Virus record (IMG/VR): IMGVR_UViG_2737471821_000008
DNA from: a virus
Lineage: Duplodnaviria > Heunggongvirae > Uroviricota > Caudoviricetes
Length of the DNA stretch: 16,452 bases
Reading direction: 5' to 3' (one strand)
The position numbers were made by a program, and so were the translations under genes. The notes under the pieces were generated by a model. The model did not search any database. It was not told the origin of the DNA and saw only the letters and a list, made by a program, of their open reading frames with translations. Within the stretch, counting starts at the first letter, position 1, and each line of letters begins with the position of its first letter. Shown piece after piece: positions 1 through 11,110 of this stretch.

Positions 1-405
1 ATGGATCAGGTCGTTGTTTTTCAAAAGATGTTTGAGCAAGTGAGAAAAGAGCAAAACTTCTCCTGGTTTTATTCAGAATTAAAACATCACCGTATTGCAC
101 ATTACATTTATTATCTGGCTACGGATAACATCAGAATTATTACTCACGATGATACGGTTTTGTTATTAAGAGGAACCAGGAACCTGTTAAAAGTTAGTAC
201 GACCAAGAACCCTGCTAAAATAAAAGAGGCCGCATTGCTTCATATTTGCGGAAAATCTACATTTCGGGAATACTGTTCAACACTGGCAGGCGCGGGCGTT
301 TTCCGGTGGGTTACTGATGTTAATCATAACAAACGCAGTTACTACGCCATTGATAATACGCTTTTATATATTGAAGATGTAGAAAATAATAAACCATTAA
401 TCTAG
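1..405 (+). CDS. ycgX: DUF1398-family protein YcgX (chromosomal flank outside the prophage)
   Basis: Complete 134-aa ORF with ATG at position 1. I recognise the sequence as YcgX, and it sits next to iraM as in E. coli K-12. AT-rich. Confidence 0.6.
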   Translation: MDQVVVFQKMFEQVRKEQNFSWFYSELKHHRIAHYIYYLATDNIRIITHDDTVLLLRGTRNLLKVSTTKNPAKIKEAALLHICGKSTFREYCSTLAGAGVFRWVTDVNHNKRSYYAIDNTLLYIEDVENNKPLI

Positions 406-616
406 CTAAAGTTGGATACTTAAGAAATGCTTCATAATTCAGTAAGGCATTAGCATAATGGAAATAAAAGTGCAGAGACTATCTCTATGGATGATTAATA
501 CTGTCTTTTTATTGTCACCCATAAATAATCACCAGACTAATACTATCAACTTGATATTTGAAATGTGATCACTTGACTTTTGATACGTTATTTTATAACG
601 GTTAACATATTTATAA

Positions 617-662
617 AAACAACGGCCGTGCCACACGTCCGTTTCAATACTTAACGCACATG
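617..662 (+). repeat. Direct repeat copy 1 of an icd 3'UTR/terminator-like ~45-bp sequence
   Basis: By hand alignment 38 of 45 positions match 1481..1525 (aaacaacggNcgtg...ccgtttcaataNttaacNcacatg). No icd coding sequence follows this copy. Confidence 0.6.
621..643. terminator. Imperfect hairpin within repeat copy 1 (possible ycgX terminator)
   Basis: Arms AACGG/CCGTT plus CGTG/CACG with one mismatch and a CCA loop, followed by TTTCAATA. Weaker than copy 2. Confidence 0.35.
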
Positions 663-1104
663 TATTTTGGTTTAGTCATCATCCGGTTATATGTATTTTA
701 GCCAGGAACAGGTTAAATCATTCCTATATAACTCAAAAATTGAAACCTTATTCTCATGTCATGCTTATATTCATTATTATCGTTATATAAAAAGGCAACC
801 ATAATGTTTAGCAAATTGGCACAAAGTAGCATAAAGGCTATGTTTTAATTACAGGATGTTCAGTCATTTGAATGTATAACATTATAGCTAAACAAATCTA
901 AAACGAAGTCAATAATTTATTGCTTTCACAAAATCTCATTTTGTTTAACATCCATTGAGATTCCTTGCTTTAAATTTTATTTTATATAAGCCATCATTTT
1001 AATTAATTTATTTTTTTGAGGGGGGGGTAATATACTCATATGCAAAATCAAGAAATAAACATCCTAATGAACCATATTAAATACCGTGGGATAAGACATA
1101 ACAA

Positions 1105-1428
1105 ATGAAGTGGATAGTAATTGACACGGTAATTCAACCTACATGTGGTATATCTTTTTCAGCCATATGGGGTAATATGAAAATGATCATCTGGTATCAA
1201 TCTACTATATTTCTCCCTCCTGGCAGTATATTTACACCGGTTAAGTCTGGTATTATCCTTAAGGATAAAGAATATCCTATTACTATTTATCACATCGCAC
1301 CATTCAACAAGGATTTATGGAGTTTACTCAAAAGCAGTCAAGAGTGTCCTCCAGGAGAAAGCAAAATAACAAATAAATGTTTACATAATAGTTGCATTAT
1401 AAAAATATGCCCATATGGGCTCAAGTAA
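1105..1428 (+). CDS. iraM: Anti-adaptor protein IraM (stabilises RpoS by inhibiting RssB)
   Basis: 107-aa ORF with ATG start, [22 protein letters not shown]..., recognised as IraM. Lies between ycgX and the icd fragment as in K-12. AT-rich, about 38% GC on a sampled line. Confidence 0.7.
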
Positions 1429-1480
1429 TGGGCTTCATATAAATATGCTCGATATGCTATTAATAATATCCACATAAATA

Positions 1481-1525
1481 AAACAACGGGCGTGTTATAC
1501 GCCCGTTTCAATATTTAACACATGG
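1481..1525 (+). repeat. Direct repeat copy 2 (authentic icd 3'UTR and terminator)
   Basis: Immediately 3' of the icd stop codon (1531..1533 on the - strand). Pairs with 617..662. Confidence 0.6.
1485..1507. terminator. Bidirectional rho-independent terminator (icd terminator; also downstream of iraM)
   Basis: Stem AACGGGCGT / ACGCCCGTT with loop GTTAT. On the - strand it is followed by GTTTTATTTAT (U-tract), on the + strand by TTCAATATTT. Confidence 0.6.
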
Positions 1526-1530
1526 AGAGA

Positions 1531-1695
1531 TTACATGTTTTCGATGATCGCTTCACCAAACTCTGAACATTTCAGCAGCTTAGCGCCTTCCATCAGACGT
1601 TCGAAGTCATAAGTTACGGTCTTGGCATTGATTGCGCCTTCCATACCTTTAACAATCAGGTCAGCCGCTTCAGTCCAACCCATATGGCGCAGCAT
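1531..1695 (-). pseudogene. icdC: Displaced 3' fragment of isocitrate dehydrogenase gene (icdC-type), prophage attachment junction
   Basis: The - strand translates to [54 protein letters not shown], the Icd C-terminus. icd similarity ends abruptly at about 1695. No start codon or upstream icd sequence. Confidence 0.85.
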
Positions 1696-1928
1696 TAGTT
1701 AGATGACTAAATCATAACTATTTGACATAGCAACATAATTTTACTAATTTGCATATAACTCATTAGCTCTTAGCATTTCTATAACTCATTGATTATAAAC
1801 ATGTGTTTTTGAGTTTTGATAACCATTTTTAGCATAAAAATAGCTGTTAACATTTGCAGAAATTAAGATCAGAGAAAATTTTTACCCTGTAGGGTATTAC
1901 GTCTTAAATGTGACTTTAATAAACAATT

Positions 1929-2762
1929 TTATTTCTGTAATCGGTTTATATTAACGTAAAGCATCTCGATTAGTTCTTTTGCATTTTTACTATAGTGTAA
2001 TTCTCTATGACAATTCGGACAAAGGGCAACACAGTTATCTGTTGTATCAGCACCACCTGAAGACAGGGGAATTACATGATGCACTTCCAAATATGGGTTT
2101 CCATCATTTAAATAAAACGGAGCATTTTTACCACAGTTTTCACATATACCTTTACTTTGCTGTAAAATCCAAGCTTTTACCATCGGGTCTCGAACATAAA
2201 CTTTTTGTAGTCTTTCTACCTCAACTGGTTTCCTGGAGCCCTCGGGTTGACTCAACGTTTTCTTAATTAATTTACTAACCCTCATATTCAGAAGCGATTC
2301 ATCATCTGTAGGCTGTGAAAGCTCTGATAGTTCTCCACGTATTATAGACGCCCAAAAACTGTCACTATAAATTCCTGGAACATTTATCAATATTCGTTTC
2401 GTTCTATTGCCGGAAGGAATTTCCTTTCTCCCCGTACGACTAAAATAAGCCTGATAACCACACATCTTCAAGCGTATATCGCGGGGGCTATTACCAATCA
2501 AAGTAAAATATTCACCAGGATGGATTTTTCTTTCATCCAAAGAATGCATATGTTTTCTGACTGATGATGACGCCAGATATACTACGACTTGGGATACACC
2601 AGAATCAACCAACCGTTCAATGATATAATCAAGAGCGATATTGTAATCTTTGTTTCTGTCACCCGGCCCCCACGACTCAAGGATTAGACCATAAACACCA
2701 TCCTCTTCACCTATCGAGCACTCAGCTTTCAGTTCAATTCCATTATTATCAAAAACATGCAT
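1929..2762 (-). CDS. mcrA: 5-methylcytosine-specific restriction endonuclease McrA (HNH family)
   Basis: 277-aa ORF with ATG start. C-terminal HNH motif ...CENCGKNAPFYLNDGNPYLEVHHVIPLSSGGADTTDNCVALCPNCHRELH. Recognised as McrA. GC about 45% on sampled lines. Confidence 0.9.
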   Translation of the reverse strand: MHVFDNNGIELKAECSIGEEDGVYGLILESWGPGDRNKDYNIALDYIIERLVDSGVSQVVVYLASSSVRKHMHSLDERKIHPGEYFTLIGNSPRDIRLKMCGYQAYFSRTGRKEIPSGNRTKRILINVPGIYSDSFWASIIRGELSELSQPTDDESLLNMRVSKLIKKTLSQPEGSRKPVEVERLQKVYVRDPMVKAWILQQSKGICENCGKNAPFYLNDGNPYLEVHHVIPLSSGGADTTDNCVALCPNCHRELHYSKNAKELIEMLYVNINRLQK

Positions 2763-2868
2763 AATATTAATCTTTAATCAATTTTTCACGACAATACTAC
2801 TTTTATTGATAAAATTGCAACAAGTTGCTGTTGTTTTACTTTCTTTTGTACACAAAGTGTCTTTAACT

Positions 2869-3423
2869 TTATTTATCCTCTGCAGGAAACCTCTTATACA
2901 AAGTTGACACACCAACATCATAGATAATCGCCACCTTCTGGCGAGGAACTCCTGATGCAATTAATCGTCCGGCCTGTGCCCATTGTTCTGGTGTAAGTTT
3001 GGGACGACGTCCACCAATTCGCCCCTGTGCGCGAGCAGCTTCCAGTCCAGCTTTTGTTCGTTCAACAATCAGTTCACGCTCCATTTCAGCCAGGGCACCC
3101 ATCACATGAAAGAAAAAGCGTCCCATTGGTGTGCTGGTATCAATTGAATCCGTCAGACTACGAAAGTTGATGCCTCGTTCGCGCAACTCCTCCACCAACA
3201 CGACAAGATGCCGCATACTACGCCCCAGCCGATCCAGCTTCCAGACAACCAGAGTGTCACCTGCCGATAATGTCCTGAGCAGTTTTTTCAGTCCCGGCCT
3301 TTCGGACTTTGTGCCGCTTATCTTGTCTTCAAAAATCAGCTCGCATCCTGCACAGTTCAGCGCATTACGTTGTAGATCTGTGTTCTGGTCATTTGTTGAT
3401 ACGCGTACATAGCCAATAAGCAT
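2869..3423 (-). CDS. pinE: Serine DNA invertase Pin (Gin/Hin/Cin family)
   Basis: Start placed at the internal ATG giving MLIGYVRVSTNDQNTDLQRNAL... (184 aa), the typical invertase N-terminus with catalytic Ser in RVST. The ORF track begins 12 codons upstream at 3459. Confidence 0.9.
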   Translation of the reverse strand: MLIGYVRVSTNDQNTDLQRNALNCAGCELIFEDKISGTKSERPGLKKLLRTLSAGDTLVVWKLDRLGRSMRHLVVLVEELRERGINFRSLTDSIDTSTPMGRFFFHVMGALAEMERELIVERTKAGLEAARAQGRIGGRRPKLTPEQWAQAGRLIASGVPRQKVAIIYDVGVSTLYKRFPAEDK

Positions 3424-3477
3424 GGTAGCTCCCCCTGACAAAAGCAGGAATGATGCCATTTGCTCGTTATTTCTGCA

Positions 3478-3503
3478 TTTTCATAAACGTTGGTTTGGGA
3501 GAA
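3478..3503. repeat. Pin recombination (crossover) site, pin-proximal copy
   Basis: TTTTCATAAACG-TT-GGTTTGGGAGAA resembles the 26-bp gix/hix architecture. The inner half-site GGTTTGGGAGAA is a perfect inverted repeat of 5362..5373. Confidence 0.7.
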
Positions 3504-4022
3504 GGTGCTCCAGCTATTGGCGTTCCGTTCTTCTGGCCGTCCGCCGCAATGCCAAATACTGTAATCGACAGTTGGTCCAGTATGGTGTTTTTGAAGTTCA
3601 ACGGCGCGAAATTCTCTGCCACTGATTACCCTGTGCTGGCGAAAGTGTTTCCGGCGCTAGCATTACCTGACGCACGGGGTGATTTCATTCGTATCTGGGA
3701 TGATGGGCGCGGGATTGATGTCGGACGTACCCTACTTTCAGGGCAATCACACACAATTATGGATCATGCACACAATATGGAATTGTGGACGGGGGACGGG
3801 CTTGCCGCAGGAAGTGCACGGGAAGGAGTAAACCCAGGAATACTGGCTACATACGGTGACGGGGGAATAGTTAAAACGGACGAACCCGGTCTTAAGGTGC
3901 CTTCCTCACTACGAGCTCTTAGCTCTCGTAGTGTTAAACGTTATGGTGAAATTAGTGGAAATGTAGATACAGAAACCCGTCCACGAAATATTGCATTCAA
4001 CTTTCTGGTGAGGGCTAAATAA
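3491..4022 (+). pseudogene. stfE: Silent alternative tail-fibre C-terminal cassette (StfE-type variable domain), in-phase with the stfP constant region after inversion
   Basis: ORF 3450..4022 runs through the crossover site (…VGLGEGAP…) and ends …ETRPRNIAFNFLVRAK, a typical fibre C-terminus. The ATG at 3450 lies outside the segment and is not a real start. The core TT occupies codon positions 2 and 3 in both cassettes. Confidence 0.65.
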
Positions 4023-4615
4023 TGATACCTGTTTTTGATGAAAATGGGCTGGCTACAGTGCCGGGCGATATGCGTTGTTTTTATTATAATGCAGTAACGT
4101 ATGAATATACCGGCTGGTCTGATGAATATATTAATACTGGCGTAAGTATACCCGCCTGTTCCACTGGTATTGACCCGGGCGAAAACATCCCGGGAAAAGT
4201 GGCAGTATTTACGGGTAAGGGATGGAGCCATGAAGAAGACCATCGCAATGAGACCGTTTACTCAACTGAAAATGGCGCAGCTGTTACAGTGGATTATATC
4301 GGTGCCATCAAAGACGGTTATGTCACGCTTTCACCGTTAACGCCATACGATAAATGGGATGGTGAGAAATGGGTGACGGATACCGAGGCACAGCATAGCG
4401 CCGCAGTAGAAGCGGCAGAAGCACAGCGCCAGTCGCTGATTGATGCTGCAATGGCTTCCATCAGTCTGATTCAACTGAAATTACAGGCTGGGCGGAAGCT
4501 GACGCAGCCAGAAAACACCCGACTTAACGCTGTGCTGGATTACATTGACGCGGTGACGGCAACAGATACCAGCACAGCGCCGGATGTCATCTGGCCTGAA
4601 CTGCCGGAGGCGTAG
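4022..4615 (+). CDS. tfaE: Tail fibre assembly protein (alternative cassette partner)
   Basis: 197-aa ORF, ATG overlapping the cassette stop (TAATG). Tfa-family conserved C-terminus …TSTAPDVIWPELPEA. Confidence 0.8.
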   Translation: MIPVFDENGLATVPGDMRCFYYNAVTYEYTGWSDEYINTGVSIPACSTGIDPGENIPGKVAVFTGKGWSHEEDHRNETVYSTENGAAVTVDYIGAIKDGYVTLSPLTPYDKWDGEKWVTDTEAQHSAAVEAAEAQRQSLIDAAMASISLIQLKLQAGRKLTQPENTRLNAVLDYIDAVTATDTSTAPDVIWPELPEA

Positions 4616-5024
4616 GCCATTCAATATCTGGCGCACCGGAAGTATCGATCAGCTCCAGTGCGTCCAGATAATCCAGCCACAAATTATATTGCGCCAGTTC
4701 ATCACCTTTCAGACGACCAATAGCGGCTTTACCGGGCCATTGCTTACTGTTCATGTATTCGTTGGCCTGATTAAGCAATAATTGCCTTTCTGATTCTGCC
4801 TGTTGAATAAGTTCTTCATGTGATGGTGGAGGTATTAGTGCCCATGTGGGTAATCCATTTTTTCCTGCAACACGAATTTTGTCATCTGGAGGCGTATTGA
4901 TTGCAAATTCATTATAAACATCATCACTGACAGCCAGAGCATCATCTGGCCATGAATTTGCATTAATGTAATCATCCTTAAGTGCAGGATTCACAAAAAT
5001 GTTTAAAGATGGACTATAAAACAT
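4587..5024 (-). CDS. tfaP: Tail fibre assembly protein (expressed orientation)
   Basis: 145-aa ORF immediately after stfP (TAATATG junction). C-terminus …TSGAPDIEWPTPP is similar to TfaE. Its 3' end overlaps tfaE convergently over 4587..4615. Confidence 0.8.
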   Translation of the reverse strand: MFYSPSLNIFVNPALKDDYINANSWPDDALAVSDDVYNEFAINTPPDDKIRVAGKNGLPTWALIPPPSHEELIQQAESERQLLLNQANEYMNSKQWPGKAAIGRLKGDELAQYNLWLDYLDALELIDTSGAPDIEWPTPPAVQAR

Positions 5025-5025
5025 A

Positions 5026-5664
5026 TTACACCCCTATAGCGATATAACGACCTAATACAGCGTTTGCAGCAGTCGCTATGCTTGAAAAACCGCGGAACTG
5101 ATTTGATGTAATTGCAGAAGCCGACAGGATTCCTGCGCCTGAAGGTGTATGCCCCACATGACTAACTATCATTCCATAACATGCTGACGGAAAGGCAAAA
5201 GGAAAATCGTTAAGATATCCGGCATCTTCACCACCAGACCCACCAAATCTCGCCTGCCCCCACTGAATAATCAGTGTTCTCCGGGAACCTGAAATAATTA
5301 ACGGGATCGTTACATACCCATTCAGGCCAATGACACCCGATGCAGTGCCAGCCAGAGATAATTCTCCCAAACCAAGGTTTTCGAGAGCCGTTTTCACCGT
5401 GCCATCCGATTTGATATCGCCAAACGGATTCTTGCGGCTTAACAGCAGCGCACGAAGCGCGGTAAGCAGCTGGTCGTGCCGCCCCTTCTCCAGGCTGGCA
5501 CCGGATGCCTCCACCACGCTGCAAAGCTCCTCCTGCAACATGTCAAAGTAGTCATCATCCAGATCGGTGGCAGGCGTGCCGGTCTGGGGGTTACCACGGG
5601 TAAAACCGTTCTTACCCGCGCCGAACTTATCCTTCTGCGCGGTTTTCGTGTCTATACGATGCAT
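5026..5664 (-). CDS. stfP: Side tail fibre protein (constant N-terminus outside, variable C-terminus inside the invertible segment)
   Basis: 212-aa ORF with ATG start. N-terminus …GNPQTGTPATDLDDDYFDMLQEELCSVVEASG… is typical of phage fibres. The crossover site lies at codons …LENLGLGE. Confidence 0.8.
   Translation of the reverse strand: MHRIDTKTAQKDKFGAGKNGFTRGNPQTGTPATDLDDDYFDMLQEELCSVVEASGASLEKGRHDQLLTALRALLLSRKNPFGDIKSDGTVKTALENLGLGELSLAGTASGVIGLNGYVTIPLIISGSRRTLIIQWGQARFGGSGGEDAGYLNDFPFAFPSACYGMIVSHVGHTPSGAGILSASAITSNQFRGFSSIATAANAVLGRYIAIGV
5362..5387. repeat. Pin recombination (crossover) site, distal copy inside stfP
   Basis: TTCTCCCAAACC-AA-GGTTTTCGAGAG. Its reverse complement matches the 3478..3503 site. 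Confidence 0.7.
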
Positions 5665-7301: not shown

Positions 7302-7602
7302 GCGTTATCGCACTCCACAGATCATCAAAAGAAATCATTACCGGTCCGTCACGACGCCAGAGGGTGATACTGTTACCCAGTTCATTAATCCCGGTGCGGC
7401 GGATATCCAGATCAATACGGGACACCACGCCGTCATCAATCATCCATTGCAGGCATTCGCGGATACCCGCCCCGGCAGCGCCCAGAGCAAGGCTGGAGAC
7501 TTCTTTCTGAAACCCCTTAAGCTGACGCTGCATACCTTTAAGCGGGCCGGACAGCCTGTCAACGGCGGTGATGATGGCTTTCAGCTGAAAATTATCAGCC
7601 AT
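7288..7602 (-). CDS. Short chimeric ORF: tape-measure-like N-terminus joined to an unrelated C-terminus (probable deletion product)
   Basis: Strong SD (GAGGAG, 7-nt spacer) and ATG. N-terminus MADNFQLKAIITAVDRLSGPLKG fits the usual tape-measure start, but the ORF is only 104 aa and its end overlaps the baseplate-J start. Confidence 0.4.
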   Translation of the reverse strand: MADNFQLKAIITAVDRLSGPLKGMQRQLKGFQKEVSSLALGAAGAGIRECLQWMIDDGVVSRIDLDIRRTGINELGNSITLWRRDGPVMISFDDLWSAITHGGQ

Positions 7603-10789: not shown

Positions 10790-11110
10790 TCACCAGAGAT
10801 CATCCGGTTCGCGCAGACCGTCTTCACGGCCTTTACGCAGGAAGCCCACAAACGCCTCTTTATGCTCGGTGGCCAGTTTATTTTGCGCTCCACCAGCCGG
10901 ACGTTTCAGCTCAAGCAGCTCTTTTTCAAGGTCGCTTTTGAGATTTTCCAGCTCGCTGAGTTTCCCGTTCAGGGTTTCCACCTGCCCGGCAAGCTTGCCT
11001 TTTTCCTGCTCAATCGCATCCACGCGCTTGTCGTTCTTTGCTTTGAAGTCGTCAAACTTCTGCTGCAGCTCCTGCGCGACCTGTTCGACATCTTTAATAT
11101 CAACCGCCAT
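10790..11110 (-). pseudogene. Major capsid protein, N-terminal fragment only (HK97-type delta domain)
   Basis: Strong SD (AGGAGA) and ATG right after the protease gene. 106 aa of coiled coil (…VETLNGKLSELENLKSDLEKELLELK…EHKEAFVGFLRKG) then a premature stop. No capsid body is encoded downstream in any frame. Confidence 0.55.

Follow-up and report, generated by a model that had tools for sequence, protein, structure and literature searches.

The window, 16,452 nucleotides of a caudoviricete record (IMGVR_UViG_2737471821_000008), begins in Escherichia coli chromosomal DNA and runs into a prophage. On the host side lie ycgX, ymgL, ymgK and iraM, followed on the opposite strand by the 3′ end of the isocitrate dehydrogenase gene (icd) with its terminator; on the phage side lie an AT-rich non-coding stretch, mcrA, pinE and tail-fibre genes (Table 1). 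Megablast of positions 1-4000 against 5426 complete E. coli genomes showed 99.1-99.2% identity with K-12 MG1655 over 1-3508 and 100% identity with strain PSS-08-2 over 1-3503. At both loci RefSeq gives the order ycgX, ymgL/ymgK, iraM, a partial dehydrogenase, mcrA, pinE and tail-fibre genes. An Rfam scan of the same 4000 positions gave no match.

Table 1. Features at the icd/prophage junction, in window coordinates
Feature	Position	Strand	Basis
ycgX (DUF1398), host-side flank	1..405	+	RefSeq; Pfam DUF1398 E=1.2e-47
Second, diverged icd terminator copy; distal boundary of the 864-nt iraM indel	616..658	-	84% direct repeat of 1480-1522
iraM, host-side flank, convergent with the icd fragment	1105..1428	+	RefSeq; NCBIfam IraM E=2.5e-51
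Homology block, host attB region against the phage-borne icd 3′ copy	1480..1695 (216 nt)	-	blastn against attL copies
Native icd intrinsic terminator hairpin	1485..1507	-	Terminator scan and fold; T run reaches about 1475
Displaced native icd 3′ end (icdC pseudogene of attR)	1531..1695	-	Codons 363-416 and stop; translation, tblastn, Pfam, RefSeq
Predicted crossover (core), ATGCTGCGCCA	1685..1695	-	Polymorphism pattern and K-12 excision data
AT-rich non-coding right prophage end (P arm of attR)	1696..1928	-	25.8% GC; contiguous with mcrA; 97-100% identical in other e14-type lysogens
mcrA, 5-methylcytosine-specific HNH endonuclease, last prophage gene	1929..2762	-	RefSeq (99-100% identical loci); Pfam HNH E=3.5e-15
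pinE, serine DNA invertase	2869..3423	-	RefSeq; Pfam Resolvase and HTH_7

The partial dehydrogenase is an open reading frame of 54 codons and a stop, whose translation matches residues 363-416 of the 416-aa K-12 Icd protein (tblastn, E=1e-29) and fills positions 301-348 of 348 in the Pfam Iso_dh model, that is, its last 48. D398E and D410E are the only residues at which it differs from K-12 Icd. RefSeq labels its equivalents in K-12 and PSS-08-2 as an "isocitrate/isopropylmalate family dehydrogenase" pseudogene, "incomplete, missing N-terminus", and the K-12 literature names the fragment icdC (PMC13626634). The initial annotation had read the minus strand as encoding exactly the final 54 icd codons, their stop and the terminator, and had seen no icd sequence upstream. 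Translation, tblastn, Pfam and the hairpin at 1507-1485 agree with the first statement, and the second stands at both the protein and the nucleotide level: searches with full-length Icd (tblastn) and with the whole icd gene (blastn) found no other icd-derived sequence in the 16.4-kb window. The fragment and its coordinates are thereby confirmed, far beyond what chance would produce. Because it has neither promoter-proximal icd sequence nor a Shine-Dalgarno motif, the stranded fragment is a silent pseudogene.

The similarity to icd, first placed as ending at about 1695, ends at exactly that nucleotide in four-way and five-way alignments, with identity starting at ATGCTGCGCCA. Here the GC content changes from 46.7% in the fragment to 25.8% over the 233 nt of 1696-1928, in keeping with the AT-rich phage DNA that had been described beyond this point; the host flank (1-1530) is AT-rich as well, at 26-40%. 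On the other side of the fragment, the terminator scan found a hairpin of nine pairs, six of them G-C, followed by a T run, with a folding energy of -20.7 kcal/mol (z=-4.9 against shuffled sequences).

At the far ends of the K-12 and PSS-08-2 prophages stands an intact 416-aa icd with a diverged 3′ end, followed by cargo genes and then by intE and xisE. These attL copies align with the window by blastn from exactly 1695, at 87.0% (K-12) and 88.5% (PSS-08-2) identity over 216-218 nt, and the homology extends beyond the stop codon and through the terminator, down to 1480. The alignments showed no homology between the copies 5′ of 1695, where the sequences are unrelated. In the terminator stem, the phage-supplied copies carry GGGAG/CTCCC in place of GGGCG/CGCCC, a compensatory change with which the hairpin still folds. 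The attP of phage 21 contains the same homology block.

To decide which of the two icd ends is native, we reconstructed attB by joining the 470 nt of K-12 icd directly 5′ of codon 363 to the reverse complement of window 1695-1226. At least 80% of this sequence is covered at one place in 3030 of the 5426 complete E. coli genomes, and in prophage-free genomes such as strain 720632 it occurs as a single piece at 100% identity, so that both flanks of the proposed insertion are contiguous there. The empty site of strain 720632 reads from icd directly into iraM, ymgK, ymgL and ycgX. Over the 165 nt of the fragment, no position (0/165) differs from the icd end of an empty-site genome, whereas the attL icd ends differ from the fragment by 12 nt and 2 aa in K-12 and by 11 nt and 1 aa in PSS-08-2, and from each other by 17 nt. 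It follows that the window holds the host's own icd end, displaced by the insertion. The attL copy is a diverged replacement that was brought by the phage and has stayed functional; its few amino acid changes and compensated terminator form the pattern expected of a phage copy selected to complete a working Icd.

The opposite assignment would make the window fragment the phage-borne copy and leave the native end on icd, and it would move the crossover to the 3′ limit of the homology, near 1480. Exchange is in principle possible anywhere in the 216 nt, and arm-type repeats do stand just past the 3′ edge of the block at attL. However, it is the window fragment that equals the empty-site icd end and stays collinear with it past the terminator and into iraM; the attL copies are 11-12 nt off that end, with the two e14-type lysogens disagreeing between themselves; and when e14 is excised in K-12, icd takes on icdC-type sequence starting at nt 12 of the block (PMC13626634). 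We consider this assignment very improbable and retain the fragment as the native end.

The native ends themselves vary among lysogens. Displaced icd fragments beside the same e14 arm are 92.4% identical to that of the window in Shigella flexneri (L010/L011, 3368-3591) and 87.7% in ECGI0523 (L014, 3364-3589). Different lysogens have displaced different icd 3′ alleles, as would be expected if one phage after another had exchanged the icd end.

The position of the exchange can be narrowed from the same polymorphisms. Alignment of the fragment with the icd 3′ end at the other junction, the check proposed with the original claim, shows that attL and attR first differ at nt 12 of the block (K-12) or nt 18 (PSS-08-2). 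A short attP/attB identity is thus found at the 5′ edge, 11 nt long in the K-12 type and 17 nt in the PSS-08-2 type. At all polymorphic sites the window fragment is of the host type, and therefore the exchange falls 5′ of nt 12, within ATGCTGCGCCA (window 1695-1685). Published data on K-12 point to the same interval. In re-analysed evolution experiments, loss of e14 was accompanied by changes in K-12 icd at H366 (CAC to CAT), T370, L375 and further sites (PMC13626634), and the H366 change is nt 12 of the homology block; after excision, the icd polymorphisms at and beyond H366 were found to be those of icdC (PMC13626634). The K-12 prophage coordinates given there, 1196209-1211412, start at the A of codon 363. 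From the polymorphism patterns and the excision data, both of which come from other strains (K-12 for excision), we infer that the exchange took place within the first 11 nt, 1685-1695. The initial annotation had confined the recombination core to 1531..1695; the core does appear to lie in that interval, but the bound that holds a priori is the whole 216-nt block, 1480-1695, and not its coding part alone.

The boundary is exact and common to the population. With a 300-nt query centred on the junction and coverage of at least 80% counted as presence, the same junction was found in 352 of 5426 complete E. coli genomes. Among the matches listed, in genomes without the junction the match reaches query position 150 (window 1695) or ends slightly before it, and never goes beyond.

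This uniformity bears on a second alternative, in which general RecA-dependent homologous recombination, and not a site-specific integrase, produced the junction. A block of 216 nt at 87-88% identity is a possible, though poor, substrate for such recombination, and deletion between the repeats has been discussed as one possible route (PMC13626634). RecA-dependent exchange would nevertheless scatter the crossovers along the block, whereas the attR ends of the window, K-12 and PSS-08-2 are all host-type from the first polymorphic site, and the 352 genomes share one boundary. Furthermore, the element encodes a lambda-type Int and Xis, as seen in the relative PSS-08-2, where genes outside the window's span specify IntE, with a lambda Int arm-binding domain (Pfam Arm-DNA-bind_1, E=4.8e-37) and a tyrosine recombinase catalytic domain (Phage_integrase, E=4.2e-18), and XisE of the excisionase family (Exc, E=1.1e-11). 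Phage 21, whose Int is 60% identical to IntE, has a matching boundary, its icd homology starting 1 nt inside that of e14. An origin by RecA is accordingly about as improbable as the converse assignment of the two ends. Least credible of all is a decayed remnant of a duplicated icd paralogue with no tie to prophage integration, for which the RefSeq label, merely "incomplete; missing N-terminus", would leave room: the window holds no more icd similarity in protein or DNA, which also excludes the complete paralogue that the initial annotation had named as the competing possibility, the similarity stops at a single nucleotide with phage DNA beyond, and the fragment, 100% identical to the native end, shows no decay.

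We are therefore highly confident that 1480-1928 is the attR of an e14-type prophage integrated in E. coli icd, its anatomy being read from the window, the native identity of the fragment from comparison with empty-site genomes and the far end from relatives. A phage that integrates into the icd 3′ end and supplies its own replacement, as e14 does, had been suggested for this locus at the outset, and the e14 flanks, the reconstructed attB and the diverged attL ends in K-12 and PSS-08-2 bear it out. It has been reported that e14 integrates in icd and that its departure restores the gene, with changes of Asp to Glu (PMC6379469).

In the mechanism that we propose, the circular phage would carry a diverged copy of the last 54 icd codons and the terminator, placed beside the arm sites of the integrase. 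IntE, a lambda-type tyrosine integrase, would exchange strands with the chromosome at the 5′ edge of the homology, in ATGCTGCGCCA at codons 363-366. After integration the 5′ part of host icd would read into the phage 3′ end and terminator at attL, leaving the enzyme intact, and the native 3′ end and terminator would be stranded some 15-40 kb away, joined to the mcrA end of the prophage and contiguous on the other side with host iraM and ycgX. IntE and XisE together could reverse the reaction and restore the native icd end. The enzymology of these steps, together with SOS-induced excision, is deduced here or taken from the literature.

Candidate arm-type sites are present on both sides of the element. 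The GTTATCAAAA motif occurs in three tandem copies, (G)TTATCAAAA, directly beyond the attL terminator of K-12 (L004, 4304-4338), and one exact GTTATCAAAA lies in the phage arm of the window at 1814-1823, on the minus strand and in the same orientation as the attL repeats. When one mismatch was allowed, the window held three occurrences against 1.2 expected, which is no enrichment. We infer that the copy at 1814-1823 and the attL repeats are candidate arm-type sites of IntE.

The junction is already known, and the biology of e14 gains nothing new from it. Its counterpart is the e14 attR of K-12, in which icdC lies between mcrA and iraM (Hill, Gray and Brody 1989, as cited in PMC6379469 and PMC13626634). 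The gene order is the same, the junction falls at the same nucleotide, the two fragments are identical (0/165 differences), and both show D398E and D410E relative to the K-12 icd end. Beyond 3508 the window differs in being a fuller relative of e14, with baseplate, sheath, tube, portal and terminase genes, and its internal deletions are unlike those of K-12 e14.

A second system with this arrangement is found among the lambdoid phages that target icd, in phage 21 (OL657228.1), which is described as sharing one attB with e14 (Wang et al. 1997, as cited in PMC12803456 and PMC7192596). It carries, in this order, a 165-nt "ICDH-like" pseudogene, a terminator, three annotated arm sites and a tyrosine integrase gene. 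Its arm-type repeats, YYTTCCCCAAAA, occupy the position at which e14-type attL has (G)TTATCAAAA, and the remaining genome is unlike the e14-type prophage. Integration at the 3′ ends of tRNA and tmRNA genes follows the same logic (PMC7192596): because the incoming element brings a second copy of the target's 3′ portion, the gene keeps its function, and the fragment that was displaced is left as a mark at the opposite junction. In contrast to those targets, icd is protein-coding and its repeat block, at 216 nt, is unusually long; for targets like icd, the limit on the overlap was raised to 250 bp (PMC7192596). The junction is a textbook case of a temperate phage whose attachment site is a protein-coding gene that remains active after insertion. 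As a reliable landmark, it puts the edge of the prophage at 1695/1696, marks the element as e14-type and tells the host side from the phage side. The best match in the phage collection to the predicted e14 attP, vB_EcoM-689R6 (ON470584.1), was rejected as evidence for attP: it is a "partial genome" that includes host icd, rluE, nudJ, mnmA and hflD, and so is a prophage excerpt and no circularised phage. Phage 21 was taken as the genuine example of an attP in its place.

Comparison with the two relatives also brought out differences elsewhere in the element. Between the phage-supplied icd end and intE, PSS-08-2 carries genes for a hypothetical protein and a large AAA-family ATPase (L003, 11432-15270), and K-12 carries ymfD, ymfE and lit (L004, 4729-7449). 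With contents that differ between two e14-type prophages, this part of attL looks like a variable slot for accessory or defence genes. In the window, a 1.9-kb tail-fibre segment adjoining pinE (3485-5380) runs opposite to its counterpart in PSS-08-2, whose prophage is otherwise identical. Inverted repeats of 19 nt at 3485-3503 and 5362-5380 enclose it, and it is the Pin-invertible host-range segment in its other orientation. Relative to PSS-08-2, whose prophage looks intact, about 5.0 kb with baseplate, DNA circularisation and tape measure genes is missing at 7464/7465, and about 2.1 kb, from head closure to major capsid, is missing at about 10803-10810. None of the complete E. coli genomes searched shares the deletion junction at 7464/7465. 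With two internal deletions, the prophage of the window is therefore defective.

The host flank may have a history of its own. In empty-site genomes iraM lies directly downstream of intact icd, and in the window the segment that contains it (about 659-1479) lies between two copies of the icd terminator 864 nt apart, imperfect repeats of about 47 nt. The join predicted for a chromosome without this segment was found as one piece, over 600 of 600 nt and at 94.5-94.7% identity, in 158 of the 5426 complete genomes. There, icd and its terminator run straight into the flank that in the window lies distal to the second copy; in AR_0017 the genes that come directly next are ymgL and ycgX. Upstream of the second terminator copy we found no remnant of icd coding sequence (local alignment score 14, which about 90% or more of shuffled sequences reach). 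The flank distal of that copy resembles the P′ arm repeats of e14 weakly, with a score of 27 that 10 of 2000 shuffles reach, and it is not the best match in the window.

Homologues of iraM in E. albertii and a related genome are neither beside icd nor accompanied by terminator repeats, and one lies near a DNA methyltransferase gene, a placement that is at most suggestive of mobility. The GC content of the host flank with ycgX, ymgL, ymgK and iraM is low when set against the approximately 50-53% of the structural-gene part of the window. This low GC and the siting of iraM homologues elsewhere hint that the host flank was itself acquired horizontally.

It is conceivable, though we think it rather unlikely, that the flank was layered from earlier integrations at the icd 3′ end, with the iraM segment a relic of an element that used the terminator region as att homology. 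Alternatively, the 158 genomes without iraM may descend from a deletion between the two repeats, the repeats having another origin. If the layering by earlier integrations is true, iraM, a regulator of RpoS stability, would be domesticated cargo of an icd-targeting element, and what lies downstream of icd would amount to a fossil tandem array. The terminator-flanked iraM indel, which may be a new observation, could indicate that the AT-rich region beyond icd was assembled by elements that repeatedly came and went at this site.
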